Shown here: positions 1 to 30,607 of the stretch, one piece after another
Layout of the letters: each line of letters starts with the position of its first letter
Position numbering within the stretch: the stretch's first letter is position 1
From: a virus
Lineage: Duplodnaviria; Heunggongvirae; Uroviricota; Caudoviricetes
Strand: one strand, 5' to 3'
Virus record (IMG/VR): IMGVR_UViG_2778261175_000003
DNA length: 37,236 nt
Program-made: the position numbers and the translations under genes
Notes under the pieces: model-generated
What the model was told of the DNA's origin: nothing
Databases searched by the model: none
The model's input: the letters and a program-made list of their open reading frames with translations, nothing else

Positions 1-141
1 TTACTGCTTACACTGTAAGAACGCCGCAAACTCCGCTCCCCAGAATCTCATCCGTATTTCGCACAGCGAACCGTGCAACATCCAGATGATGAGGATTGCC
101 GTCACGCAGAACGTGATGGCCGTAAGCGATTTTTGCGACAT
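1..141 (-). CDS. Hok/Gef/PndA-family type I toxin, 46 aa (MSQKSLTAITFCVTAILIIWMLHGSLCEIRMRFWGAEFAAFLQCKQ)
   Basis: Hand translation of the minus strand from ATG (rc of 139-141) to TAA (rc of 1-3). One N-terminal TM helix then SLCEIR...E.AAFL.CK, matching the conserved C-terminal motif of Hok and PndA as recalled. Too short for the ORF track. Confidence 0.65.
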   Translation of the reverse strand: MSQKSLTAITFCVTAILIIWMLHGSLCEIRMRFWGAEFAAFLQCKQ

Positions 142-271
142 AGCACTTGCTCCTTTTCCGGAGAGGCGCTAACCTTTCACTTGTCAAGGTAATGCGGTTA
201 GGGCCTCGGTTAAACAGAAACGTTTTCCGGGGCCTTTCCACATCTGGCCTTCGGGTATTCCCTCCGACCAT
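8..271 (-). CDS. Mok-like overlapping leader frame (87 codons) spanning the hok-like ORF in another frame
   Basis: ORF track entry; starts upstream of and overlaps the toxin ORF in a different frame, as mok does for hok in plasmid R1. No protein similarity recognised; probably regulatory rather than a functional protein. Confidence 0.3.
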   Translation of the reverse strand: MVGGNTRRPDVERPRKTFLFNRGPNRITLTSERLAPLRKRSKCYVAKIAYGHHVLRDGNPHHLDVARFAVRNTDEILGSGVCGVLTV

Positions 272-331
272 CAGCCGAAAGGCACCCGCGCGTAATCTAT
301 CTCTTTTTTGTTACTCCGGCAATTCTGCCTG

Positions 332-592
332 TTAATTTTGAGGTAAGGGCAAACTCATCTGATTGTTTCCTTTGTGTGAAGCTGGCAGTTCATGCCACGG
401 GATACCTTCTGAAGAGTGAGCGCCGGAGGCGTGTTTCGATGTGAATTTATGGAAAGCTTCCAGTGTTGAGAAGCATACACCGCATTCTAGGTTGTTACAT
501 TGGTAATACTTTTGCCGCACGGTGTTTGAATCATTTTCCGGACGACTGGTGCGGATTCGGGCAGATGCGCCACAAAGCGGACAACGGAACAT
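332..592 (-). CDS. ogr: Ogr/Delta-family zinc-finger late transcription activator
   Basis: N-terminus MFRCPLCGASARIRTS...YYQCNNLEC matches the P2 Ogr C4 zinc-finger pattern (CPLC...C..C); location next to D as in P2. Confidence 0.85.
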   Translation of the reverse strand: MFRCPLCGASARIRTSRPENDSNTVRQKYYQCNNLECGVCFSTLEAFHKFTSKHASGAHSSEGIPWHELPASHKGNNQMSLPLPQN

Positions 593-802: not shown

Positions 803-1117
803 GTGGTTGCTGATCATGAATATTTGTATTGGAAGATAATTGCAATGAGCGAAAGAGTGTTTGAGAAAGAACTATATTCTGAATGGGTTATACGCAATAG
901 TCTATATTGGATGACTCCGCTTACTCGATGGAAACTCCATGAAGACGTTTCCCACTGGATAATCTCTTTTGAAAACGATAATCCCAAATTCCTTTATGAA
1001 TTCGATAGGCTGCTTAATGATTACTCTTTGCGAGAAAAGCTACAGCATAAAACAGGGGCGTTGAGAGACTCTATTGTCCATAAAGTGCTTCGCAGTGTTG
1101 ATGAGAGGCTTTCATAA
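803..1117 (+). CDS. hxsD: Small protein at the head of the Hxs cassette, HxsD-like by position
   Basis: ORF track (GTG start at 803; alternative ATG at 845). Stop overlaps the start of the next gene (TAATGG). Assignment by operon context only. Confidence 0.45.
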   Translation: MVADHEYLYWKIIAMSERVFEKELYSEWVIRNSLYWMTPLTRWKLHEDVSHWIISFENDNPKFLYEFDRLLNDYSLREKLQHKTGALRDSIVHKVLRSVDERLS

Positions 1118-2505
1118 TGGAATTGATGCCATTTAATTTTGACAGATTGCCTAATGGACAGGTGTTTATAAGCAACCTTGCAGGTTTTCATCATTTCATT
1201 GGTGAGCAAGACCTTATTGATCTTTCTGATGAGCGAATTAGTTCGGAGCAATCAAACGTGCTAGAAAGTAAGCTTTTCATAACCAGTGAAAGCTCATCTG
1301 CTATAACTCCCTATGCTTTAAGTTCTGCTTTTGCAAAACGATTGATGAATGAACTGGCTGTCAGGCCAATTTTCATGATTGTACCCACATTACGTTGTGA
1401 CCATACATGCAAGTATTGCCAGGTTAGTAGAGCTTCTGTTAATGCCTCAGGTTACGACCTAAATCCTGAGCTCATCCCCGATATTATTTCGGCTATTAAA
1501 AAACTATCAACGCCACCTTACAAAATAGAGATACAGGGTGGGGAGCCTCTCTTGCGGTTTGATTTAATTCAGAACATCTATGATCAATGTGCTGAAACGC
1601 TGGGAAGAACCAATTTTGAGATGGTGGTGGCATCAAGTCTGTCTGTCTTGAATGAGGATATGATTGAATGGTCGAGAGACCGGAACATAACGTTCTCTGT
1701 GTCGCTTGATGGTGAGGAAGTTGTTCACAACAGTAATCGAATTCTTGGTCGTGGGCTTGCGTACAGTAGAACAGTGTCAGGGGTAGAGGCTATCAAACAC
1801 TCTTTAGGTGCTGGCCGCGTTGCAACGGTTACTACAGTTACTAAAGAGCTTATCAGACGTCCTGAATCGATTGTTCAGGCTCACTTGTCTCTTGGGCTCA
1901 AGGACATGTTTATCCGACCTGTTAGTCCCTATGGGTTTGCACAAAAAGCTTCTTTCACCTTTTCTATGGACGAATACTTCAGCTTCTATGCCTCGTTGAT
2001 AGATGAAATCCTTAAGATTAATAATGAAGGGATAAGGGTTGTGGAACATTCGGCCTCCATTCATCTGAAAAGGATCTTCAATCCCGGTTTTAGTGGCTAT
2101 GCGGATTTAAAGTCTCCAAGTGGAGTCGTGCTTAACAGTATTCTTTTCAATTATGACGGTCGAGTATATGGTAGCGATGAGAGCCGTATGTTGCAGAAGG
2201 TGAATCCTGAAACGGAGTTCAGTGCGGGTGAAGTTAAGACGCTATCATTTTCTGATAGTCCTTACTATAACGCAGTATTGACTTCATCGTTCAATTTTGC
2301 TCTGCCAGGTTGTGATACATGTGCATATCAACCATTTTGTGGTTCAGATCCATGCCAGAACATAAGTGTACAGGGTGAGCCTGTCGGCGATAGGAGTCGT
2401 TCAACGTTTTGTCAATATCACAAGGGGATGTTCAGGTATCTGATGAACTGCATCTCAGAGGGTGGTTCGAAGGCTGAGATGCTAAAAGGATGGGCATATG
2501 TCTGA
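1117..2505 (+). CDS. hxsB: Radical SAM/SPASM-type maturase, HxsB-like (462 aa)
   Basis: CxxxCxxC motif (CDHTCKYC) about 95 aa from the N-terminus, C-terminal Cys cluster (CDTCAYQPFCGSDPCQ) typical of SPASM/twitch domains; GGEPLL motif; translationally coupled to neighbours. B versus C naming is by size and order, from memory of the TIGRFAMs Hxs families. Confidence 0.75.
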   Translation: MELMPFNFDRLPNGQVFISNLAGFHHFIGEQDLIDLSDERISSEQSNVLESKLFITSESSSAITPYALSSAFAKRLMNELAVRPIFMIVPTLRCDHTCKYCQVSRASVNASGYDLNPELIPDIISAIKKLSTPPYKIEIQGGEPLLRFDLIQNIYDQCAETLGRTNFEMVVASSLSVLNEDMIEWSRDRNITFSVSLDGEEVVHNSNRILGRGLAYSRTVSGVEAIKHSLGAGRVATVTTVTKELIRRPESIVQAHLSLGLKDMFIRPVSPYGFAQKASFTFSMDEYFSFYASLIDEILKINNEGIRVVEHSASIHLKRIFNPGFSGYADLKSPSGVVLNSILFNYDGRVYGSDESRMLQKVNPETEFSAGEVKTLSFSDSPYYNAVLTSSFNFALPGCDTCAYQPFCGSDPCQNISVQGEPVGDRSRSTFCQYHKGMFRYLMNCISEGGSKAEMLKGWAYV

Positions 2506-3610
2506 GGTTATCAGGAACGATATCTTTCATTTTGCTTCTACAGAGAACGTGCCCACGGGGTTCTATCGGTTATGCAAACAAAAACCAGTGAACCCTTTAT
2601 TCTTTTTGCCCAATTTGCTAGTAGTTGCTGAGGGCAATAATGATGCCATTCCACCATGCTTTGATTTCTCTGTTATTAGCACTGAATTATTTGAGTCAAT
2701 TGAAGATGGAGATATTGGGATAATCAACAATGGCAATATGATACGCGTTATTCTGTCACGCAAAGCCAACCATAATACTGTCTTAGTTACGGAACGCTGC
2801 AATAACTTGTGTCTGTTTTGTTCGCAGCCACCAAAGAAAATAAATGATGACTGGCTACTTACCCAATCAGCTCTTGCTATAGCTTCATTTGGCTTGAACG
2901 GAGTTGTTGGGGTCAGCGGTGGTGAACCTTTGCTATATGGGGATGACTTCCTTCACTTCATTGATTTTATCATCGAGAATTCACCAGATACTGCTTTACA
3001 TGTTTTAACAAACGGACGCAAATTTGCTGATACCAACTTTACACAGGAAATGGCAAAGCGAAGCAAAAAGATCAAAATCACCTTTGGTATCCCGCTCTAC
3101 TCATCAAGACCACTTGTGCATGATCATCTGGTAGGGAGTGATGGCGCATTTAATGAAACGGTTAAAGGGTTAATCAATGCAGGAAACTTGGGGATTAATA
3201 TCGAACTTAGAGTTATTCCTACACTGGCTAACTATACCGAATTGGATGATATCGTAGAATTCGCTGGCCGTGTGTTCTCCAACATCAATCAGATTTCCCT
3301 TATGGGGTTGGAGCCTATCGGTTGGGCACGAAAAAACTGGTCCACCATCTTCATTGATCACAGTAGTTATAGTGAGAAAATAATCTCTGCCATAGACGCT
3401 GCATACAGGTCAGGCATACCTCTGACAATTTTTAATTATCCTTTGTGTTATCTTCCTGAAAGGGCTAGGGAGCTTGCTGTTCAGTCGATCTCTGATTGGA
3501 AAAATTACTATCCAAAAGAATGTGATGAATGTACTCAGAAGCCTTCCTGTGCTGGCTATTTCAGTTCCTCAAAAGGCCGTTTTCATCAATCACCGAGACC
3601 AATTTTATGA
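2498..3610 (+). CDS. hxsC: Second radical SAM/SPASM-type maturase, HxsC-like (370 aa)
   Basis: CxxxCxxC (CNNLCLFC), GGEPLL motif, C-terminal Cys cluster (CDECTQKPSC). Start ATGTCTGA overlaps the hxsB stop; its stop overlaps the hxsA start (ATGA). Confidence 0.75.
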   Translation: MSEVIRNDIFHFASTENVPTGFYRLCKQKPVNPLFFLPNLLVVAEGNNDAIPPCFDFSVISTELFESIEDGDIGIINNGNMIRVILSRKANHNTVLVTERCNNLCLFCSQPPKKINDDWLLTQSALAIASFGLNGVVGVSGGEPLLYGDDFLHFIDFIIENSPDTALHVLTNGRKFADTNFTQEMAKRSKKIKITFGIPLYSSRPLVHDHLVGSDGAFNETVKGLINAGNLGINIELRVIPTLANYTELDDIVEFAGRVFSNINQISLMGLEPIGWARKNWSTIFIDHSSYSEKIISAIDAAYRSGIPLTIFNYPLCYLPERARELAVQSISDWKNYYPKECDECTQKPSCAGYFSSSKGRFHQSPRPIL

Positions 3611-4242
3611 AAAAGTTTAATTTTGCTGCTCTACTTCCGGGATTTTTGGCTCTCAACAATTCTGTATGGGCAAGCGATTCATCTACAGGAGCGAGTGATT
3701 TACCTGGTATGACTCTTAATGAGCATGATTTAGTGATAGCTCCACTTAACACGGAAGTCCCATTTTATATCGCAGGGCATCGAAGCCATAGTTCTCATAG
3801 GAGCCATAGCTCTCATAGATCCTCATCAGGTGGTGGATACTATGGTGGAAGTACCCCCTATTATCCAAAAACATACAGCTCACCAAGTTCATCTGGTTCT
3901 TCAAGTTCAGGTGCAAGTTCCTCATCGTCCTCTTCCTCGGTGCGTGCACTTCGTTCTAACGATAATAATAGAACCACTAACACGAGTTCTGTTGGAACTT
4001 CAGAGGTTAACCGTACGAGTAATGGGCTTGCTTCTGATGCAGAGAAACGTAAGCGATTGATTATGCGAGTTCAGTTCGCATTGCTGGACAGGGGATTTTA
4101 TAACGGAAATATTGACGGCATAATGGGGCCATCCACAAGGCTGTCTGTGAAAAATTACCGCATTGCGAATGGATTACCGATTCCTGCAACTGAAACACTC
4201 GACACACAATTGTTAAATTCTTTGAATATATTAGCTCGCTAA
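3607..4242 (+). CDS. hxsA: His-Xaa-Ser repeat protein HxsA-like: signal peptide, (HxS)x5, Ser-rich linker, C-terminal peptidoglycan-binding-like domain
   Basis: Start taken at MKKFNFAALLPGFLALNNSVWA (ATG 3607) rather than the track start 3529. Contains HRSHSSHRSHSSHRS, a poly-Ser tract and a C-terminal segment (RVQFALLDRGFYNGNIDGIMGPSTRLSVKNYRIANGLP) resembling PG_binding_1 domains. Confidence 0.75.
   Translation: MKKFNFAALLPGFLALNNSVWASDSSTGASDLPGMTLNEHDLVIAPLNTEVPFYIAGHRSHSSHRSHSSHRSSSGGGYYGGSTPYYPKTYSSPSSSGSSSSGASSSSSSSSVRALRSNDNNRTTNTSSVGTSEVNRTSNGLASDAEKRKRLIMRVQFALLDRGFYNGNIDGIMGPSTRLSVKNYRIANGLPIPATETLDTQLLNSLNILAR
3778..3822 (+). repeat. Coding tandem repeat encoding five His-Xaa-Ser units
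   Basis: DNA reads cat-cga-agc-cat-agt-tct-cat-agg-agc-cat-agc-tct-cat-aga-tcc; position derived from codon arithmetic in the hxsA frame. Confidence 0.8.
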
Positions 4243-4406: not shown

Positions 4407-5516
4407 TCATTCTGCTATCCATTCCGGGATTTTTGCCTCAAGCTCAAGCTGTGTGGTAAAGCCGCTGTTATCAATGGTGTGCTCGGCTTTTGCAATAATC
4501 CAGTCCTGATTATCAATCTCGCTTTTAAATCCTGTTACCGTGCCATGCATTTCGGGGTAGAGTTCTGCACGCCCACGTGCCAGCGTGATGGAAAATGATG
4601 CGGCTCCGCGTTGTAGCTGCTGCCACTTTGCCGCCGCTGCGCGTCTTGCTGCCTGCTCGTTTTTAAACGTTTTGCGCATGACGTATACATTGCCGTCTGC
4701 GCCCTCCATGTAATCCCCCTCGCGGCTGCTGCTTTTCTCCTTTTTTGTTTTTTGGGCAGAACCACGTTTCGTCACGCTGACTTTTTTCTTTTTGCCATAG
4801 TCCAGGTCCAGCCAGTAAGCGCGTACCCCCGTGTACGCCTGCCGGTCTGCAATGCGGAAGTGATGGCTGTCACCGCTGCTGCGGGTGATGGCGAATGAGG
4901 GCAGCGGCTTTCCGCTGGCGCTCACCCCCTGTCCGGGCACGATGAAAAGCAGTGCGCCGTTCTTGACGGTGGCTATGGCTCCCAGCATGTCTGCCATACG
5001 CGTGAGAAACGAGATGTCACTTTCCTCCGTCTGGTCGGCGTGGTCGATTTCCACCTCTGCCAGCGAGGCGCTGATTTGCGCCTTCAGCCCGTAGCGGTAC
5101 GCGATGGCAGAAACAACCTGCCCCACCGTCACGTCATGCCAGGACACTTCACGCTTCACGTTGAACTCCTGCCGGAAGTCTGCGCTGCTGGCCGTGATGG
5201 TGAGCCTGTCCGGTGGTCCCTCATGTGTCACCTCGTCAACGATGAAGGTTCCTTTGTCCATCAGTGCCTCACCTTTCCAGCCCAGCGCCAGACCCAGCGT
5301 CTGTCCGCGCTTCGGGAGCTGCACGCTGCCGTCGCAGTCGTCAATCGTGAGGGTTAACTGGTCTGCCTCAAATCCCCGGTTGTCGGTCATCGCCAGCGAG
5401 ATGACCCGTCGGGTCAGCGCCGCGTTTTCCGTGCCCTTAACCGTGATGGAAAAATCAGGGATCTTCACGCACTCTGACAGACCGTTCAGGTATCCGCTTA
5501 CGTCCGCAGGGTTCAT
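4407..5516 (-). CDS. D: Tail protein D (late control gene D family)
   Basis: Protein resembles P2 gpD. Start placed at MNPADVSG (ATG at 5514-5516, GGAGA RBS upstream) rather than the track GTG at 5699. Confidence 0.85.
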   Translation of the reverse strand: MNPADVSGYLNGLSECVKIPDFSITVKGTENAALTRRVISLAMTDNRGFEADQLTLTIDDCDGSVQLPKRGQTLGLALGWKGEALMDKGTFIVDEVTHEGPPDRLTITASSADFRQEFNVKREVSWHDVTVGQVVSAIAYRYGLKAQISASLAEVEIDHADQTEESDISFLTRMADMLGAIATVKNGALLFIVPGQGVSASGKPLPSFAITRSSGDSHHFRIADRQAYTGVRAYWLDLDYGKKKKVSVTKRGSAQKTKKEKSSSREGDYMEGADGNVYVMRKTFKNEQAARRAAAAKWQQLQRGAASFSITLARGRAELYPEMHGTVTGFKSEIDNQDWIIAKAEHTIDNSGFTTQLELEAKIPEWIAE

Positions 5517-5588
5517 CGCAATTTCTCCGTCTGTGTCTTCGTACGGCGAAATACTCCCACGCGCACGGAGGCGCTGTAATCCTGCGTA

Positions 5589-5614
5589 TGTTGTCGGAGA
5601 GCGGCGAGAACAGG
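5589..5614 (+). promoter_or_regulatory. Candidate late-promoter activator element TGTTGTCGGAGAGCGGCGAGAACAGG upstream of FI
   Basis: Near-identical 26-nt element recurs upstream of P (24183-24208); each lies about 60-80 bp upstream of a late-gene start and carries TGT...ACA ends reminiscent of the Ogr-dependent P2 late promoter motif. Spacing differs from the canonical TGT-N12-ACA. Confidence 0.4.
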
Positions 5615-5678
5615 CAGCGCGTGAATGCGGGGCTGTTTTTCGGGAGGATGTCGCCACACAAAACACCAGGAGGTGCTC

Positions 5679-6860
5679 ATGAGTGAAACACGCTTTCACG
5701 GTGCACGCGTCAAAGAAAACACCGACCTCGTGACCGCGATTAATGACATTGATTCCAGTGTCATCGGTATCGTGGCCACGGCGGACGATGCAGACAGCGA
5801 CGCGTTCCCGTTAAACAAGCCCGTATTGATCACCCGCGTGGCGAATGTGCTGGGTAAGGCAGGCACAACAGGCACGCTGTACAAAACGCTCAAGGCGATT
5901 TCCGACCAGACCAGCCCGAAGGTTATCGTGGTGCGTGTGGCAGAAGCCGGAGAGGAAGGTGAGACACAGGATCAGCTTGTCATTGGTGGCTCGCAGGCTG
6001 ACGGCAGCTACACGGGCATGTATGCCCTGCTGGTTGCTGAACAGGACGAGAGCATTGGTTACCGCCCGCGCATTCTGGCGGCTCCCGGCCTGGATACCGA
6101 AGCAGTCACATCCGCCCTGTGCGTCATTGCGGACAAGCTCCGCGCCTTTGTGTACGCCGGATGTAACGGGTGCGACACGATGGCGGAGGCAATCACTTAC
6201 CGTGCGAAGTTCTCCGCGCGTGAGCTGATGCTGCTGTGGCCTGACTTCATTGCCTACAACCCGGTGAGCGGAAATAACGAAACATTTCCGGCAGCGGCGT
6301 ATGCGTGCGGGTTGCGTGCGCGGATTGACAGTGAACAGGGCTGGCACAAGTCACTGTCCAACGTGGCGCTGAAAAATGTTCTCGGTATGTCGCAGCAGGT
6401 GTTCTGGTCGTTGCAGGCCGAAGACAGTGATGCGAACAACCTGAACAACAAGGAAATCACCACGATTATTCGCCGTAACGGCTTCCGCTTCTGGGGGAAC
6501 CGTACTGCCGAAACCAGCGACTACATCTTTGAGGTGTACACGCGCACAGCGCAGATTCTGGCAGATACCATCGCTGAGGCGCAGTTCGAAACCATTGACG
6601 AACCGCTGACCCCGGCGAACGTGAAGGACGTGATTAGCGCCATCCGCGCAAAACTCAACGCCCTGGTGACGGCCGGGAAACTCATCGGTGCGGAGTGCTG
6701 GTATGACGTGCTGGACAACGGCACGACGGATTTGCGTCAGGGGCGCGTGCGCATCCGTTATAAGTACACGCCAGTGCCGCCGATGGAAGATCTGACGCTG
6801 TATCAGACCTTCACGGATGAGTATTTCGACTCCGCTTTTGCAACGCTGGGAGGTGCGTAA
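5679..6860 (+). CDS. FI: Contractile tail sheath protein
   Basis: Strong similarity to P2 gpFI (e.g. FPLNKPVLIT, ELMLLWPDF, RRNGFRFWGNRT, YKYTPVPPMEDLTL). Start at ATG 5679 with AGGAGG RBS. Confidence 0.9.
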   Translation: MSETRFHGARVKENTDLVTAINDIDSSVIGIVATADDADSDAFPLNKPVLITRVANVLGKAGTTGTLYKTLKAISDQTSPKVIVVRVAEAGEEGETQDQLVIGGSQADGSYTGMYALLVAEQDESIGYRPRILAAPGLDTEAVTSALCVIADKLRAFVYAGCNGCDTMAEAITYRAKFSARELMLLWPDFIAYNPVSGNNETFPAAAYACGLRARIDSEQGWHKSLSNVALKNVLGMSQQVFWSLQAEDSDANNLNNKEITTIIRRNGFRFWGNRTAETSDYIFEVYTRTAQILADTIAEAQFETIDEPLTPANVKDVISAIRAKLNALVTAGKLIGAECWYDVLDNGTTDLRQGRVRIRYKYTPVPPMEDLTLYQTFTDEYFDSAFATLGGA

Positions 6861-7376
6861 ATGGCTGTACCACGTTACGTTCGCCAGTTCACGCTGTTTG
6901 TGAACGGCAAAAACAAAATCGGCACGGTGACAGGCATCACTCTGCCCAAGCTGACCCGAAAAACCGAAGCCTATCGCGGTGGCGGGATGCTGGGTGCGGT
7001 GCATATTGACCTCGGACTGGATGACGGCGCACTGGATGCCTCGTTCACCACCGGTGGGGTTGAAAAAGAGCTGCTCCAGGAATACGCCACTGACATTAAC
7101 GAAGTGGCGCTGCGCTTTGTGGGTGAGCTGTTCACCGATGGTGAGGAAAGTCAGCTCCTTGAGGTGGAGATGCGCGGACGCATCACGGAAATCGACCGTG
7201 GCGAAACCAAACAGGGCGACACCACGCAGTACACCTTCGCCGTCAAAAACACCTACTACAAGGAGTCGGTGGATGACAGCGATGTGACAGAAATCGACCT
7301 GCTGAACTTCATCTACAAAAAAGACGGCCAGAACGTCTTTGGTGACCGCGTGAGTTCGGCGCTCGGTCTGAACTGA
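6861..7376 (+). CDS. FII: Tail tube protein
   Basis: Position directly after FI, size (171 aa) and similarity to P2 gpFII. Confidence 0.85.
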   Translation: MAVPRYVRQFTLFVNGKNKIGTVTGITLPKLTRKTEAYRGGGMLGAVHIDLGLDDGALDASFTTGGVEKELLQEYATDINEVALRFVGELFTDGEESQLLEVEMRGRITEIDRGETKQGDTTQYTFAVKNTYYKESVDDSDVTEIDLLNFIYKKDGQNVFGDRVSSALGLN

Positions 7377-7422
7377 CAGCATTAACAGGGCGGCACATTG
7401 TGCCGCCACAGGAGAAAGAAAA

Positions 7423-7839
7423 ATGGCAGCAAAGAAAGATGACATCATGAACAGCGAAATCGTCGCAGGTGACACCACCACTGAAAACATCGATGTGGCA
7501 GAGGAAAACACTGCGGATAACGCAGAAGCCGCAGAGGAAAAAACGGGGGTGAAGTTATCCTGCCCGGTGGTGCGTGGCGAACGCGTTATTGACTACGTGG
7601 AGATTGGCGAGGAAATCCGTCAGGCAGGCTCGTTGCGCGGGCTGTCTCTGATTGAGGTGCTGAACCTCAAAACGGATCCGATGATGACGCTGCTTTCGCG
7701 CGTGACCGCACCACGCCTGAAACTGGCAGAAATTCAGTCACTGTCCACCGGTGATTTCGTGGCGCTGGCGACTATGGCTGCGAATTTTTTTGCTCCCACG
7801 GAGTCTGCGAAACCGTCCGTGGCGGTGATGGAAGCGTAA
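7423..7839 (+). CDS. E: Tail assembly chaperone E
   Basis: Position between FII and the tape measure gene; acidic N-terminus; ends shortly after a T7 slippery run. Confidence 0.8.
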   Translation: MAAKKDDIMNSEIVAGDTTTENIDVAEENTADNAEAAEEKTGVKLSCPVVRGERVIDYVEIGEEIRQAGSLRGLSLIEVLNLKTDPMMTLLSRVTAPRLKLAEIQSLSTGDFVALATMAANFFAPTESAKPSVAVMEA

Positions 7840-8003
7840 TCACGCTGGCGAAGTTCGACAACGTTGAAGAACTGGTCGCTGATATAGCAGTCGTGTTTAA
7901 CTGGTCGCCCGGCGAGATATTCTCAATGCCTCTCGTCGAGGTGATGAGCTGGCGTGAGCGGGCGGCGCAACGTAGCGGAGTCCGCAACAGTGAAATCCCT
8001 TGA
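7423..8003 (+). CDS. E+E' fusion produced by programmed -1 frameshift at T_TTT_TTT (7785-7791)
   Basis: Hand translation of the -1 frame from 7791 gives an open 70-codon extension (..ITLAKFDNVEELVADIAVVFNWSPGEIFSMPLVEVMSWRERAAQRSG..) ending at TGA 8001-8003 and overlapping the T start, as in P2 E/E'. Confidence 0.7.
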
Positions 8004-11000
8004 TATTCGTGTCAGCTTTGGCGCAATTGACCGGCTGACACGCCCGACCGAAAACGCCCGCCGTCAGGTGGGCGCTCTCACTGAATCCCTTCAGAAGACG
8101 CAGAACAACATACAGGCGCTCGACAGACAGTCGAAGGTGTTCGATCGTGCCGCCGGAAATCTCAGTAAATACCGCGAACAGATTGCCCGCGCGGAGCAGA
8201 GGCTCGCCGGGCTGCGAAAGGCAGAGCAGGACGGTAACACTCTCTCCGAAAAGCAGCGGGAGATGATGACGGCGCTGTCTGCACGTCTTGAGCGCCTGAA
8301 CGAGCTGCGCACGCGCGAGCGCGAAAAACTCCAGGCGGCGGCAGGCGAAATGCGCAAACACGGCATTCTGCTTTCCGGCAGCAGCCGCACCATCGAAAGT
8401 GCCGTTCGCCGTACACAGCAGTACAACGAGCAGCTCGAGCGCGAACGGCAGGCACTGGCTCGCGTGACGCAGGCACAGAGCCGCTATGAGGCCGCGAAGG
8501 CACAGGCGGAAAAACTGCGCAACACAGGGGCTGTGGCGATGGCGGCGGGTACAGGCGGCCTGTATGCGGCGCAGCGCATGATGGTTCCGGCGATGGAGTC
8601 CGAACAGCACGGCGCGGTCATTGCTGCCGGTTCAGGGGAAGCCCCACAGGATGGCGCACGTTACACCCACATCATCCGTAACATACAGGCTGACAGTCTC
8701 GCTGATTTTGCCGGTGCTGCGGAGGCTGTGAGTGCGGTACGCAGTACGCTCGGCGCGCTGGGCGACACCGGCGACCGGGAACTGGAGCGCATCAGCCGTC
8801 GTGCGCTGGATATGCGGACCGTCTTTGGTGTTGATGTGCCGCAGAGCATTCAGGCCGCAGCCATCATGATGAAGAACGGGCTGGCCGCCAGCAGTGACGA
8901 GGCTACTAACCTGATGACGGCAGGGATGCAGCGCATGTCCGCTGAAATGCGCGATGAACTGCCGGAAATTCTGCATGAGTATTCCACCCACTTCCGCAAC
9001 ATGGGCTTCACCGGCAGCGAGACAATGAGTCTGCTGGTTGAGATGGCAAAGCAGGGCAAGTTTGCGCTGGACAAAACCGGCGATGCCGTGAAGGAGTTCA
9101 GTATCCGTGGTTCGGATATGTCGAAATCCAGTGTTTCAGCGTATGAGACACTCGGCCTGAATGCCGAACGGGTGTCTGCTGCCATTGCTCAGGGGGGCAG
9201 TACCGCACGCCAGGCGATGCAGGTGACCGCCCGTGCACTGCTGGCCATCCGTGACCCGGCAGAGCGGGCGAACACGGCCATTGCGTTATTCGGCACCCCC
9301 GTTGAAGACCTTTCCGTTGACCAGATCCCGCAGTTCCTGAGGGCGCTGGCTGATGTTCGTGACAATCTGGGCGATGTCACCGGTGTGGCAGACCGCATGG
9401 GGCAGACGCTGCGCGGTAATCTCTCCGGCGATATTCAGGCGCTGAGTGGTGCGTTCTCAGGGCTACGCACGGACATCTTCGGTACTGTGACCGAGGATTT
9501 GCGCGGGCTGGTTCAGACGGTGAGCGCGTGGGTGACCCGGATGCGCGAATGGGTCGGAGAGCATCAGGCGCTGGTCAGAGTCCTGGTGCTGACCGGCGGG
9601 AGTGTTCTGGCGCTGTCTTCCACGTTCGGTGCGCTGTCACTGACGCTCGGGCTGATTGCGGGGCCGCTGGCAAAACTGCAACTGGGGCTGGGGCTGCTGA
9701 CGGGGGGCGGCGGCATTGGTGGTGCTGTCCGGCTTGTGTCTGCGATGGCACTGCGCCTGACGGGGCTGCCTGCGCTGTGGGGGCTGGTCACGGGGGCGGT
9801 GTCGGTACTGGGTGGCGCACTGGGGGCGCTGTTCAGTCCGGTCGGGCTGATTGTTGCCGCCCTGGTGGGCGGCGCGGTTCTGGTGTGGAAATACTGGGAT
9901 CAGATCAGCGCGTTTTTTTCCGGCTTTTTTGCCGGAGTGTGGGAGGCGCTGCAACCGCTGCGGGAAGCCTTTGCATCGCTGGCTCCGGTGTTCGGGTTGA
10001 TTGGTGACGGCATCAAAGCTGTGTGGGAGTGGTTCACCCGCCTGCTTGAACCTGCGAACGCCTCAAAAGAGACGCTCGACAAATGCACCAGTGCCGGGGA
10101 GTCGTTCGGCAAAACGCTGGGGTGGGTCATTCAGAACATTGTGCTGGGGCCGCTGATGCTGCTCCTTGATGGTCTCGGTACCGTGCTGAAGTGGCTGGGT
10201 GTCATCCCGGACGGCATCAAAAAGGCACAGAAGGAGACGCAAAAACTCCAGGTGAGCGCCGCAAAACAGGCCACACAAAAAGCGCCGGTTGCGTGGGAGT
10301 GGGATCCTGCACAGAAAAAAATGGTGCAGAAAACATGGTCGTGGTCATCAGATGCAGAGGAAAACAACGGTGACAATAAACCCGCAATACCTGCCCCTGC
10401 GGTTCCCGGAGAGGTGAAGGGAACGTCAGACAATCCGGTCAGCAAACCCGGTAGTAAATCCCCGCTGGATGAGGCATGGTTCCGGCAGGGGATACAGAAA
10501 ACCGCCAGCAACACCGGCGGGCTGCTTGAGGAAACCAAAAAACGTACTGGTCCCGGCGATATTGTTTTCAAAAACCTGCCCGGACCCGAAATCATTCACG
10601 GCGAGTGGAAAGCACCGCAGGTTATCCGGACAGTGCAGGCGGTATCGGCGGGCGGAGGACTGGCGGATGCGCTGACAACGCTCTGGCAGAAACTCACCGG
10701 AAGACAGACTGCTTCACCCGTTCCGGTCGTGAATATTCCTGCGCCAGTGGAGAGAGTGGCACGTCAGGTATCCACGCTGCCGCAGCACAACGAGGCAAAT
10801 ACAGAACTGGTTGCCGGTATTCAGCGTGTGCATGAGGCGGTGAACAGTCCGGGTGGAGAGGGCACTTTGCCTTCCCCCGTGGTTAACGTTCTGATGCCAG
10901 CAGTGAATGTTCCTGCGCCAGTGGTGAGCGTGGCCCGTCAGGTGTCCACGCTGTCACAGCCGCAGCACAACGAGGCAAATACAGAACTGGTTGCCGGTAT

Positions 11001-11454
11001 TCAGCGCGTGCATGAGGCGGTGAACAGTCCGGGGGGAGAGACGGTATCGCCTCCACCTGTGGTGAACGCTCTGATGCCAGCAGTGATTGTTCCTGCGCCA
11101 GTGGTGAGCGTGGCGCGTCAGGTATCCACGCTGCCGCAGCACAACGAGGCAAATACAGAGCTGGCTGCCGATATTCAGCGCGTGCGTGAGGCTGTAAACG
11201 GCCCGGGCGGAGATGTGGCTTTATCTGTTCCTGTTGCGGAGGTTATCCGTCCACCGCTGCGACCGGAGTCCGTCAAAAAAGAAACCGCGCCACAAACGCA
11301 GGCTGCGGCATTTTCCGGTGAAATACACGTACATCTGCACAACGTCAACACGCAGAATCCGCGTGAACTGGCAAAACTGGTTGGCGAGGCTGTCCGCGAA
11401 GAGATGCGCAGACAGGCGCGTACAGGCATGAACAGCTTCTGTGACAGGGACTAA
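7954..11454 (+). CDS. T: Tail tape measure protein
   Basis: Very long ORF after E/E' with coiled-coil N-terminus, Gly/Ala-rich hydrophobic middle and internal repeats. Track start is GTG 7954; an alternative GTG near 7990 is possible. Confidence 0.85.
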   Translation: MSGRRNVAESATVKSLDIRVSFGAIDRLTRPTENARRQVGALTESLQKTQNNIQALDRQSKVFDRAAGNLSKYREQIARAEQRLAGLRKAEQDGNTLSEKQREMMTALSARLERLNELRTREREKLQAAAGEMRKHGILLSGSSRTIESAVRRTQQYNEQLERERQALARVTQAQSRYEAAKAQAEKLRNTGAVAMAAGTGGLYAAQRMMVPAMESEQHGAVIAAGSGEAPQDGARYTHIIRNIQADSLADFAGAAEAVSAVRSTLGALGDTGDRELERISRRALDMRTVFGVDVPQSIQAAAIMMKNGLAASSDEATNLMTAGMQRMSAEMRDELPEILHEYSTHFRNMGFTGSETMSLLVEMAKQGKFALDKTGDAVKEFSIRGSDMSKSSVSAYETLGLNAERVSAAIAQGGSTARQAMQVTARALLAIRDPAERANTAIALFGTPVEDLSVDQIPQFLRALADVRDNLGDVTGVADRMGQTLRGNLSGDIQALSGAFSGLRTDIFGTVTEDLRGLVQTVSAWVTRMREWVGEHQALVRVLVLTGGSVLALSSTFGALSLTLGLIAGPLAKLQLGLGLLTGGGGIGGAVRLVSAMALRLTGLPALWGLVTGAVSVLGGALGALFSPVGLIVAALVGGAVLVWKYWDQISAFFSGFFAGVWEALQPLREAFASLAPVFGLIGDGIKAVWEWFTRLLEPANASKETLDKCTSAGESFGKTLGWVIQNIVLGPLMLLLDGLGTVLKWLGVIPDGIKKAQKETQKLQVSAAKQATQKAPVAWEWDPAQKKMVQKTWSWSSDAEENNGDNKPAIPAPAVPGEVKGTSDNPVSKPGSKSPLDEAWFRQGIQKTASNTGGLLEETKKRTGPGDIVFKNLPGPEIIHGEWKAPQVIRTVQAVSAGGGLADALTTLWQKLTGRQTASPVPVVNIPAPVERVARQVSTLPQHNEANTELVAGIQRVHEAVNSPGGEGTLPSPVVNVLMPAVNVPAPVVSVARQVSTLSQPQHNEANTELVAGIQRVHEAVNSPGGETVSPPPVVNALMPAVIVPAPVVSVARQVSTLPQHNEANTELAADIQRVREAVNGPGGDVALSVPVAEVIRPPLRPESVKKETAPQTQAAAFSGEIHVHLHNVNTQNPRELAKLVGEAVREEMRRQARTGMNSFCDRD
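10729..11220 (+). repeat. Three tandem coding repeats (about 174-180 bp, about 58-60 aa each) inside the tape measure gene
   Basis: Copies begin near 10729, 10903 and 11083; protein unit PVVN.PAPV..VARQVSTLPQHNEANTELVAGIQRVHEAVNSPGGE. Confidence 0.8.
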
Positions 11455-11467
11455 AGGAGACACAATT

Positions 11468-11926
11468 ATGATGATGATTTTTGGCATGTTTGTGTTTGAA
11501 CTGAAAACGCTGCCGCATCAACAGATTCAACAAAACAAAACGTGGCGGCATGTGAAAAATGAGCGCATTAACCGCTCTGCGGCCTGGCAGTATATCGGTG
11601 CAGGTGATGAGCAGATCACGCTGTCTGGTCAGCTGTACCCGGAAATTACCGGTGGTGAGGTGTCGCTGACACTACTGAACACCCAGGCCTACACCGGATG
11701 TCCCTGGCCGCTGATTGATGGCACGGGGCAGATTTACGGAATGTACGTGATTACGGGATTACAGACCACCCGCTCCGAGCTGGATCGTTACGGAAAGGCA
11801 AAAAAGATTGAGTTCTCCATCAGCTTTCAGCGGTGTGATGAGGATATGAGGGAGAAACTCCAGTCTGCTTCTGCGGGTGAATTACTGAACACGCTTAAAG
11901 ACAAAATGGCTGAGGCTGCATTCTGA
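11468..11926 (+). CDS. U: Tail protein U
   Basis: Similarity to P2 gpU; start at ATG 11468 preceded by AGGAG RBS (track start 11441 overlaps T). Confidence 0.8.
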   Translation: MMMIFGMFVFELKTLPHQQIQQNKTWRHVKNERINRSAAWQYIGAGDEQITLSGQLYPEITGGEVSLTLLNTQAYTGCPWPLIDGTGQIYGMYVITGLQTTRSELDRYGKAKKIEFSISFQRCDEDMREKLQSASAGELLNTLKDKMAEAAF

Positions 11927-29332: not shown

Positions 29333-29644
29333 TTATTCTGGGAATAACGCCCTGATGTTTGCGGCCATCTGGCTGGTTGTCTGAGCCTCTGGCGCAGCCT
29401 GTGTTTTGGTTTTTTCTGCACTGACCTGTGTCACGGGTAATGGCTCATCGTCAGCCCATGCAGCCAGCCGGTAAGCCTCTGCCGGATTCTTCTTCAGAAG
29501 CGCCAGTCCGGCCAGAAAAGCCACACGCTGGCCGCTTTTGCGGGCTTCTGGTGTAAGGCTGTCCAGCCAGGCACATGCTTCGCTTTCGTTCTTGACTGCC
29601 GCAGGCTTCAGATAGAAACTTATCCGTCTGGTTGATGTCGTCAT
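29333..29644 (-). CDS. parR: ParR/StbB-like partition adaptor
   Basis: Pattern RRISFYLKP....LDSL.PE.R...RVAFLAGLAL parallels R1 ParR (RRTIAFKLNP....LDSIPQGERSRLNRAALTAGLAL); sits directly downstream of the parM-like gene. Confidence 0.7.
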   Translation of the reverse strand: MTTSTRRISFYLKPAAVKNESEACAWLDSLTPEARKSGQRVAFLAGLALLKKNPAEAYRLAAWADDEPLPVTQVSAEKTKTQAAPEAQTTSQMAANIRALFPE

Positions 29645-29647
29645 GAT

Positions 29648-30607
29648 CTATTCCCTGTTCATGGCGTGGAGACCATTAACCAGAGCAAACTGTGGCACCC
29701 CGTCCGCGATAAAAGTCGCATTAACTCCGCAGGCTTCGCGGACAGCGGGTGCCACAATCTCCGCCCCTCCACCGACAACCATCACCCGCCCGTAACCCGA
29801 AAAGCTCGCCAGCGCGCGGAGTACACGTTGTTTCAGTGTTTCTTCCTTTTCACGAATAACCGCCATCAGGCTGTTGTAATGTGCGTCATTGTGGATGTGC
29901 TGGCGCAGCCAGGCTTCATCATGGCGATGTTCGATAATGGTATTGGCGATGTGGTGACTGGTGCGCATACCGTTAGTGGCCATCACCGACAGTACGGCAT
30001 CGGCCATCAGAGAAACGCCTACGTGTGGATCGCAAAACACCTGGCTGATACCTGCCAGTTGTCCCTGAACCTTTGCCACATCCAGCGTGGTTCCGCCTAA
30101 ATCCACAATCAGCAGGGATTCAAACGGACTCATGTCAGCCAGCGCCTTAAAGCCAGCCGGAATGGATTCAGGCATAACCCGCACGTTACGGATAGTGAAT
30201 GCTTCGCCGTTCTGGTACTCCACCGGGCGCATAACGTTCGCTTTTTTGCGGTTGATGTTGGTCATATCCGGCTGGGCGTTTGTATCGAAATACTCGCTCA
30301 GTGGCAGGGTGACAACCACATCCACCTCCTGTGGTGTGATGCCTGATTTGACCAGCGCGTGATGAATGGCAATGACATTCACATCGCTGTACTGGTATTG
30401 CGTGTCGGTCGTCTGGACAAAGCGATCGCTGACCGGATCAAAACCATAGCGCACGCCATCAAGCATGTAGTTCGCGGGCTGCGTGCCACCGAACGGTGCA
30501 GACCATTCCGACTTGAAGCTGTTCGGGCTGATGGCGTTGCGGCGTTCGCCGTTCTCAGTCCAGGCCAGCTTGATGTTGGTGGAGCCGTCGTCGATACAAA
30601 TTTTCAT
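29648..30607 (-). CDS. parM: ParM/StbA-like actin-family segregation ATPase
   Basis: N-terminus MKICIDDGSTNIKLAW and internal motifs (YSDVNVIAIHHAL, MPESIPAG, LIVDLGGTTLD, MVVGGGAE) match plasmid R1 ParM as recalled. Confidence 0.85.
   Translation of the reverse strand: MKICIDDGSTNIKLAWTENGERRNAISPNSFKSEWSAPFGGTQPANYMLDGVRYGFDPVSDRFVQTTDTQYQYSDVNVIAIHHALVKSGITPQEVDVVVTLPLSEYFDTNAQPDMTNINRKKANVMRPVEYQNGEAFTIRNVRVMPESIPAGFKALADMSPFESLLIVDLGGTTLDVAKVQGQLAGISQVFCDPHVGVSLMADAVLSVMATNGMRTSHHIANTIIEHRHDEAWLRQHIHNDAHYNSLMAVIREKEETLKQRVLRALASFSGYGRVMVVGGGAEIVAPAVREACGVNATFIADGVPQFALVNGLHAMNRE

Follow-up and report, generated by a model that had tools for sequence, protein, structure and literature searches.

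The window, by which we mean the whole stretch of 37,236 nucleotides that was analysed (IMG/VR virus record IMGVR_UViG_2778261175_000003, Caudoviricetes), begins at its left edge with a small gene on the minus strand, hok, which encodes a Hok/Gef-family type I toxin of 46 amino acids. Its upstream neighbour is ogr, which encodes an Ogr/Delta zinc-finger protein, and the distance from the end of ogr to the start of hok is 190 bp, the spacing that the initial annotation of this DNA had estimated. Between the two genes we place the predicted promoter and leader of the hok mRNA and, on the other strand, the predicted promoter and RNA of an antisense gene, sok. The window runs from the hok stop codon to the integrase stop codon, and the hok 3' untranslated region (3' UTR) and both copies of the attachment (att) site lie outside it. 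Strain H22, whose sequence agrees with the window at every position of the first 791 nt, supplied the data on the 3' UTR and the att site; they do not come from the window itself. The features are collected in Table 1.

Table 1. Features of the hok/sok locus in window coordinates; promoters, transcripts and RNA elements are predicted.
Feature	Position	Strand	Details	Basis
hok CDS	1..141	-	46 aa + stop, Hok/Gef toxin MSQKSLTAITFCVTAILIIWMLHGSLCEIRMRFWGAEFAAFLQCKQ	cluster 72 of the Hok catalogue
hok AUG	141	-		sequence
hok stop	3-1	-	window starts exactly here	sequence
hok Shine-Dalgarno	150..153	-	GGAG, 8 nt upstream of hok AUG	sequence reading, conserved
Predicted hok promoter	294..322	-	-35 TTGCCG (322-317), 17-nt spacer, -10 TAGATT (299-294)	sequence; inferred
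hok mRNA, part in window	1..287	-	predicted 5' end G287 (GGGUGCC...)	Rfam, shared end-points, fold
tac element	273..287	-	GGGUGCCUUUCGGCU	pairs with fbi (3' UTR) or ucb
ucb-like box	229..239	-	GGAAAGGCCCC	invariant in 57 copies
GAGG	204..207	-	counterpart of R1 mok Shine-Dalgarno	invariant or near-invariant columns; R1 positions from PMC9841398
Sok-recognition stretch (sokT-like loop)	176..196	-	loop of GAGG/dcb hairpin	hypervariable
dcb	167-163	-	GCCUC	pairs with GAGG in consensus fold
GC-rich 3' hairpin, fbi, terminator	outside window	-	after hok stop	
sok promoter	147..175	+	-35 TTGCTC (147-152), 17-nt spacer, -10 TAACCT (170-175)	R1 layout, conservation
Predicted Sok RNA	about 183-240	+	~60 nt	fold, R1 layout homology
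87-codon overlapping ORF ("mok-like" frame)	8..271	-	87 aa from ATG; -1 frame relative to hok	
ogr (late-gene activator)	332..592	-	upstream neighbour, context only	Pfam Ogr_Delta, 52.3 bits

The 46-residue product matches the Pfam family HOK_GEF (PF01848) over profile positions 5-42 of 42 with 32.3 bits (gathering cutoff 22, E 7.7e-8) and PHROG 251 with 82.7 bits (E 2.7e-23), and BLASTP aligns it with Hok of plasmid R1 at 42% identity over 31 amino acids (E 9e-8), a stretch that covers the core from the transmembrane (TM) segment through SLCEIR to AAF. These matches bear out the Hok hallmarks that the initial annotation had seen in this frame, and the Hok_Gef alignment that it had proposed as a check scores above the gathering threshold and far beyond chance. 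The protein also has the build of the family, which combines a length of about 50 amino acids with one N-terminal TM helix and a periplasmic part of the pattern C-E-[IVF]-R ... AAF: its single hydrophobic segment is AITFCVTAILIIWML (Kyte-Doolittle 2.55 over 15 amino acids), and SLCEIR and EFAAFLQCK are both present. We conclude that the frame is a Hok/Gef-family type I toxin gene. The NCBIfam models stay below their curated cutoffs for this protein (HokA, 36.1 against 89; Hok family, 24.7 against 73), and it is a divergent branch of Hok/Gef, which PGAP names only "Hok/Gef family protein" (WP_001416438.1). The identical protein is found on 720 contigs.

Two more specific identities were considered and rejected. 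HokA is excluded by the score of 36 bits, far under the 89-bit equivalog cutoff. HokW was at first assumed from a "MokW-like" label, and was rejected on the basis of Takada et al. (2021) and Table S2 of a recent preprint on the Hok family (Escalera-Maurer et al., 2026). The label "MokW-like host killing" is only the name of PHROG 251, and it is misleading here, as the protein is not HokW and the annotated product is Hok, not Mok.

For comparison within the family, viral contigs were scanned with an exact 15-mer pattern, which gave 128 copies, about 17 chance matches being discarded; 72 copies are unique and intact, and 57 are unique over +1 to +360. The Hok reading frame is intact at 46 amino acids in the 72 unique copies. 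Among codons with a single difference, 53% of the changes are synonymous in the hok frame, compared with 18% and 29% in the other frames, so that the signature of coding and purifying selection is seen in the hok frame only.

The predicted -35 element of the hok promoter starts 10 nt beyond the stop codon of ogr. The -35/-10 pair stands at the same distance from GGGTGCC in phage P88, in a copy on an IncC plasmid, in a Stx phage, in an IncI1 plasmid and in STEC639, despite divergent flanks. A strict scan for sigma-70 promoters and terminators passed over both the hok and the sok promoter, which are sub-consensus; the hok promoter was missed because only 8 of its 12 positions agree with the consensus. 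Both promoters were located instead by homology to R1 and by conservation. The transcript from the hok promoter is predicted to run about 115 nt beyond window position 1. Its leader matches the Rfam model RF01794 "sok" from 287 to 128 on the minus strand over the full model length, with 47.3 bits (E 8.5e-9), a score that does not reach the gathering threshold of 59. On an R1-type locus used as control, the same model gives 87.2 bits on the hok strand and is hence written in the sense of the hok leader, so the minus-strand match has the expected orientation.

The RNA has the elements of the R1 switch. A hok RNA of 350 nt folds at -155.6 kcal/mol (z -7.7), and the minimum free energy structure contains a 13-bp helix between tac and fbi. 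The latter, AAGGCACCC, lies about 48-56 nt after the hok stop and outside the window, and its long-range pairing with tac closes the full-length mRNA as in R1. In the 57 copies, 95.8% of the cells in this closure are paired, a figure in which tac is invariant by design, because copies were retrieved with the exact 5' 15-mer and covariation in tac is beyond the reach of the sample. The tac and fbi sequences differ between R1 (GGCGCUU/AAGCGCC) and the window locus (GGGUGCCUU/AAGGCACCC), yet each pair is complementary. The closed structure as a whole has 92.5% of its cells paired in the 57 copies, compared with about 40% in slid controls. Compensatory changes support three pairs of a long-range helix that connects the target region with the 3' UTR and four of the nine pairs of the protective stem-loop that directly follows the hok stop, outside the window; this stem-loop, too, belongs to the R1 paradigm, and it is paired in 100% of cells.

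The ucb-like box has a partner in each form, the GAGG region when the RNA is closed and tac when it is open. The RNAalifold consensus of the 57 copies shows the open form, with tac/ucb columns 5-11 paired with 52-58 and GAGG/dcb columns 87-99 paired with 122-133. As in R1, a tac/ucb stem is thereby combined with a GAGG/dcb stem that presents the Sok target. This target is represented by 25 distinct variants of 22 nt among the 57 unique copies, and its flanks are invariant.

At the level of sequence, the strand opposite the leader carries a cis-antisense sok gene, whose own promoter is placed like that of R1-type sok (TTGCGC/17/TATCCT). The sok -10 element is invariant in all 57 copies, the -35 element reads TTGnnn throughout, with a spacer of 17 or 18 nt; on the opposite strand, the -35 element overlaps the hok Shine-Dalgarno sequence GGAG. 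The predicted Sok RNA would have about 9 unpaired nucleotides at its 5' end, followed by a long hairpin (about 200-235) and by UUUCC. It folds at -24.8 kcal/mol (z -3.4) and is perfectly complementary in cis to the hok leader. The initial annotation had expected a sok-like antisense RNA on the plus strand around 150-280 and had proposed a promoter search there, and the predictions given here agree with that expectation: with R1 as the guide, the search returned TTGCTC/17/TAACCT, the promoter that the strict scan had missed.

The cassette lies inside a prophage. In H22, a 25-bp direct repeat, GGCCGCTCTGCGGCCTTTTTTCTTT, flanks the element (contig L002, 447-471 and 36796-36820), which is inserted between ihfA and btuC. 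One copy of the repeat starts 18 bp after the ihfA stop (18-42 bp), and the other is 59 bp before btuC; the att core looks like the ihfA transcription terminator. In K-12, ihfA and btuC are adjacent, with one copy of the repeat and no hok. Since the repeats flank the element and the K-12 site is empty, hok is part of an att-bounded, P88-like prophage inserted at the ihfA terminator, and neither host DNA nor the att site itself. The opposite reading, that the toxin frame is conserved host DNA beside the prophage, or part of the att region, could appeal to hok being the outermost frame of the window and to ihfA being just 305 bp away from it. We give it practically no credence and rejected it, because one repeat lies outward of hok and the other past the integrase gene, with the K-12 site as described, and because the cassette occurs in records of packaged phage genomes and one plasmid has the order ogr-hok-integrase, which is that of a circular junction. 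The initial annotation, which had itself named host sequence outside the element as the finding that would overturn it, was right to put the toxin at the phage edge, hok being the outermost prophage gene and next to ogr. It had also placed the locus at or inside the attachment-site region, and this has to be corrected, as the 25-bp att core is 263 bp past the hok stop and outside the window. Between the integrase gene and the att core, H22 has a frame for a hypothetical protein of 131 amino acids.

In relation to the window, fbi, the terminator and the att core lie up to about 290 bp past position 1. Many IMG/VR prophage calls likewise start at the hok stop (among them contigs L017, L027, L046, L064, L070, L072 and L081, with the pattern match at 273-287 on the minus strand). 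Because such calls are trimmed at gene boundaries, the hok 3' UTR, with fbi and the terminator, and the att site are systematically lost. Prophage callers that end at gene boundaries thus make the hok cassette look incomplete.

The cassette is widespread. Several complete E. coli chromosomes are 100% identical to the first 700 nt of the window, and some version of the cassette occurs in 1550 of 5426 complete E. coli genomes, with up to seven matching places in some of them. The hypervariability of the target loop and this multiplicity together suggest diversification into separate Sok specificity groups. The P2-like Xuanwuvirus phages P88, P884B11, 500465-2, Chuche, PhiR44_2 and Shae_phiSM carry the same cassette with 93-98% identity (93% for P88), and copies with about 81% identity are found in many Stx phages; several plasmids have it as well. 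The end-points of the cassette are constant across phages and plasmids, at about window -70 to 299, consistent with transfer of the cassette in one piece between plasmids, Stx phages and P2-like phages. A blastn search against plasmids with the cassette did not reach R1-type hok/sok. An Ogr frame lies directly upstream on the same strand in 76 of the 104 viral contigs with the cassette, in 72 of these at one fixed distance, and hok directly after ogr is thus the standard layout in a large group of P2-like prophages. Some replicons show erosion of the cassette: in the copy on the E. albertii plasmid pEA5_1 (L008, 301-585), the hok frame is broken directly behind its AUG, and the copy has lost an internal segment as well as fbi.

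Three other regions of the prophage deserve mention. A complete hxsD-hxsB-hxsC-hxsA (His-Xaa-Ser radical-SAM) operon occupies 845-4242 on the plus strand, with all four proteins above the NCBIfam equivalog cutoffs. A 2026 paper describes HXS as an anti-phage system that stops phage DNA from entering, and states that 77% of E. coli hxs operons lie outside predicted prophages (PMC13128918); the operon described here is situated about 700 bp from hok/sok, between ogr and gene D, as cargo of the att-bounded, P2-like prophage. At 4407-11926, gene D (minus strand) diverges from the sheath-tube-E-T-U block (plus strand), an order of gene D and the tail block that differs from that of phage P2. We considered whether the tail genes FI-U had been inverted with respect to gene D and rejected this, as P88, P884B11 and other Xuanwuvirus phages have the same arrangement, which is normal for the genus and no rearrangement. 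PGAP annotates the gene D homologue of H22 as a shortened VgrG/Pvc8-family protein. Finally, a pair of frames at 29333-30607 (minus strand) adjoins the replication endonuclease gene; the H22 counterparts are annotated as ParM and as a plasmid partitioning/stability protein, and the pair has no NCBIfam match at E<=1e-5.

[quoted passage not shown] If it works like R1, the weak promoter at 322-294 would give a stable hok mRNA of about 400 nt, in which the 5' tac element pairs with the 3' fbi element and keeps the molecule closed and untranslatable. Slow trimming of the 3' end would remove fbi, upon which tac could switch to ucb and the leader would open. The short-lived Sok RNA from the promoter at 147-175 on the plus strand would then bind the exposed variable loop, and the duplex would be destroyed. 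Should the supply of Sok stop, the 46-residue Hok would be made and would damage the inner membrane. The comparisons show the anatomy and how it is conserved, and it is by analogy with R1 that we expect the transcripts, their processing, dependence on RNase III and toxicity of this exact allele. For the phage, the cassette may serve in prophage retention, in helping lysis or in the exclusion of other phages.

One component of the R1 paradigm, a mok leader frame that starts just after GAGG and reaches the hok Shine-Dalgarno sequence, has no counterpart here. In R1, the mok AUG is 8 nt after GAGG, and translation of mok up to the hok Shine-Dalgarno sequence is required for Hok synthesis (PMC9841398). 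The initial annotation had described an 87-codon frame overlapping hok and positioned like mok; the frame is real, at the position given in Table 1, and its equivalence to mok does not hold, given its variable starts and the lack of a start after GAGG. No start codon follows GAGG at the R1 spacing. All mok candidates of the window allele (AUG at +17, GUG at +47, UUG at +101) are distant, the most mok-like start being the in-frame UUG at 187-185. The window frame owes part of its length to a synonymous TGT>TGC change in a Cys codon of hok, which removes the usual TGA of the family. Neither alternative leader frames, in any of the three frames, nor a non-canonical start at the R1 spacing turned out to be conserved. 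An AUA at this spacing in P88-type alleles was rejected as a candidate, as it opens a frame of only six codons that ends before the hok Shine-Dalgarno sequence. The R1-type locus used for comparison, pMTY1886_IncFII (L010, 344-559), was fetched by tblastn with R1 Hok, and the framework of R1 elements was taken from PMC9841398. At this locus, the AUG 8 nt after GAGG is in frame with hok and gives a 71-codon Mok-Hok fusion frame, not an overlapping -1 frame; PGAP annotates only a 33-residue "Hok" there.

Could the -1 frame nevertheless be a real mok, either in its 87-codon form or in a shorter one from the UUG at 187-185, and be required for hok translation as in a canonical hok/mok/sok locus? 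It has the same phase relative to hok as R1 mok (PMC9841398), in the window it reads without a stop from the 5' end until 7 nt short of the hok stop, GAGG is strictly conserved, and in 21 of the 72 unique alleles the Sok-target loop contains the in-frame UUG (+101-103). When the Hok coding sequence is recoded at random with synonymous codons, 15% of the recodings leave the -1 frame open throughout, and 10% of shuffled leaders are open, which gives a joint chance of about 1.6%; this is low but not compelling, given how variable the frame is across the family. We consider a real mok unlikely, for several reasons. Nearly half of the unique alleles (35 of 72) lack, in any frame, a leader frame with an ATG, GTG or TTG start that reaches the hok Shine-Dalgarno sequence, and the 31 alleles that do have a -1 frame start it inconsistently, at +17, +45, +47, +72 or +101-103. 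About half of the unique alleles, that of P88 among them, have the 87-codon frame closed or lack its start, and the copies in P88, the Stx phage and the IncI1 plasmid have stops on both sides of the -1 frame. In the window allele, AUG271 lies in the tac stem at a distance of 16 nt from the start of the mRNA and has no Shine-Dalgarno sequence, and the UUG is too far from GAGG at 16 nt. Only 18% of the changes are synonymous in this frame (although the sequence of R1 Mok is also unconstrained), and no family in Pfam or PHROG matches its 87-residue product. The census of leader frames does pick up the AUG 8 nt after GAGG when it is run on the R1-type control. The 87-codon frame is thus probably an accident of this allele rather than a gene or a functional mok.

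Because about half of the alleles lack the leader frame that R1 needs, translation control may differ from that of R1, or some alleles may be silent. The latter idea, carried to its end, would make the cassette an inactive relic whose hok became untranslatable after the loss of mok, as in decayed chromosomal hok loci, and which hitch-hikes with the prophage. It would fit with the missing conserved mok start, the weakness of both promoters and the existence of decayed copies such as the truncated hok of the E. albertii plasmid. We hold it to be quite improbable, as the intact Hok in 72 unique alleles with its signature of purifying selection, the conservation of the RNA switches and of the sok promoter while the target loop diversifies, and the mobility of the whole cassette across phages and plasmids all speak against decay. 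Moreover, hok has a good Shine-Dalgarno sequence of its own (GGAG, 8-nt spacing), and a near-identical peptide is absent from the constructs reported as non-toxic. The former idea suggests a working model in which the phage-borne Hok lineage of cluster 72 has dispensed with mok while retaining Sok and the switch formed by GAGG, ucb and dcb: hok would be translated from its own GGAG once the leader opens, Sok would act through the formation and decay of the duplex, or through structure, and not by blocking a leader frame, and the loop variants would be groups that do not cross-react among co-resident prophages. We put this model forward tentatively, at somewhat less than even odds. In any case, the missing conserved mok poses a small and testable question about the reach of the R1 model of translational coupling.

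Among known systems, the hok/mok/sok (parB) locus of plasmid R1 is the natural reference. Its Hok has the same single TM segment and the same SLCEIR...AAF core as the window Hok. The two loci also share the complementarity of tac and fbi, the ucb, GAGG and dcb elements, the protective 3' hairpin, and a cis-antisense sok with the promoter placement TTGCnC/17/TAnCCT and an RNA made of a tail and a hairpin. Unlike R1, the window locus has a shorter leader, with the hok AUG at +147 instead of about +174, other tac and fbi sequences, no AUG after GAGG and no conserved mok frame. Its Hok has 46 instead of 52 amino acids, it is phage-borne and not plasmid-borne, and its Rfam score is below the gathering threshold.

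The cassette as such is already known and is a routine moron of P2-like prophages. In a catalogue of Hok proteins (Escalera-Maurer et al., 2026, bioRxiv 10.1101/2025.08.07.668861), hok was found to be enriched in prophages, and 42 of 45 tested constructs were toxic, the three non-toxic ones being named. Construct 72_1621 of cluster 72 is identical to the window Hok except for S32 in place of R32, and construct 72_1589 of the same cluster is the Stx-phage allele of the cassette; both were tested for toxicity and neither is one of the three. With the gene in RefSeq, the family catalogued, a near-identical peptide tested and the prophage enrichment reported, the locus has little discovery value. 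The preprint covers the Hok coding sequences only, leaves Mok, Sok and the mRNA elements aside and calls the prediction of Mok "not trivial"; nor does it describe the position of the cluster 72 hok between ogr and attP.

A second phage-borne hok/sok type I system is hokW-sokW of the Stx2 prophage Sp5/933W (Takada et al., 2021, PMC8621323). [quoted passage not shown] HokW differs from the window Hok in having 51 amino acids, in beginning with MKQQKAM... and in belonging to the HokD-like cluster 35 rather than to cluster 72, so that the two are not orthologs; Stx phages carry in addition a true homologue of the window cassette, the copy with about 81% identity. The NCBIfam model that matches best is that of chromosomal HokA of K-12 (HokA equivalog, E 4.7e-9), which has a C-terminal tail of the AAFL.CK type in common with the window Hok.
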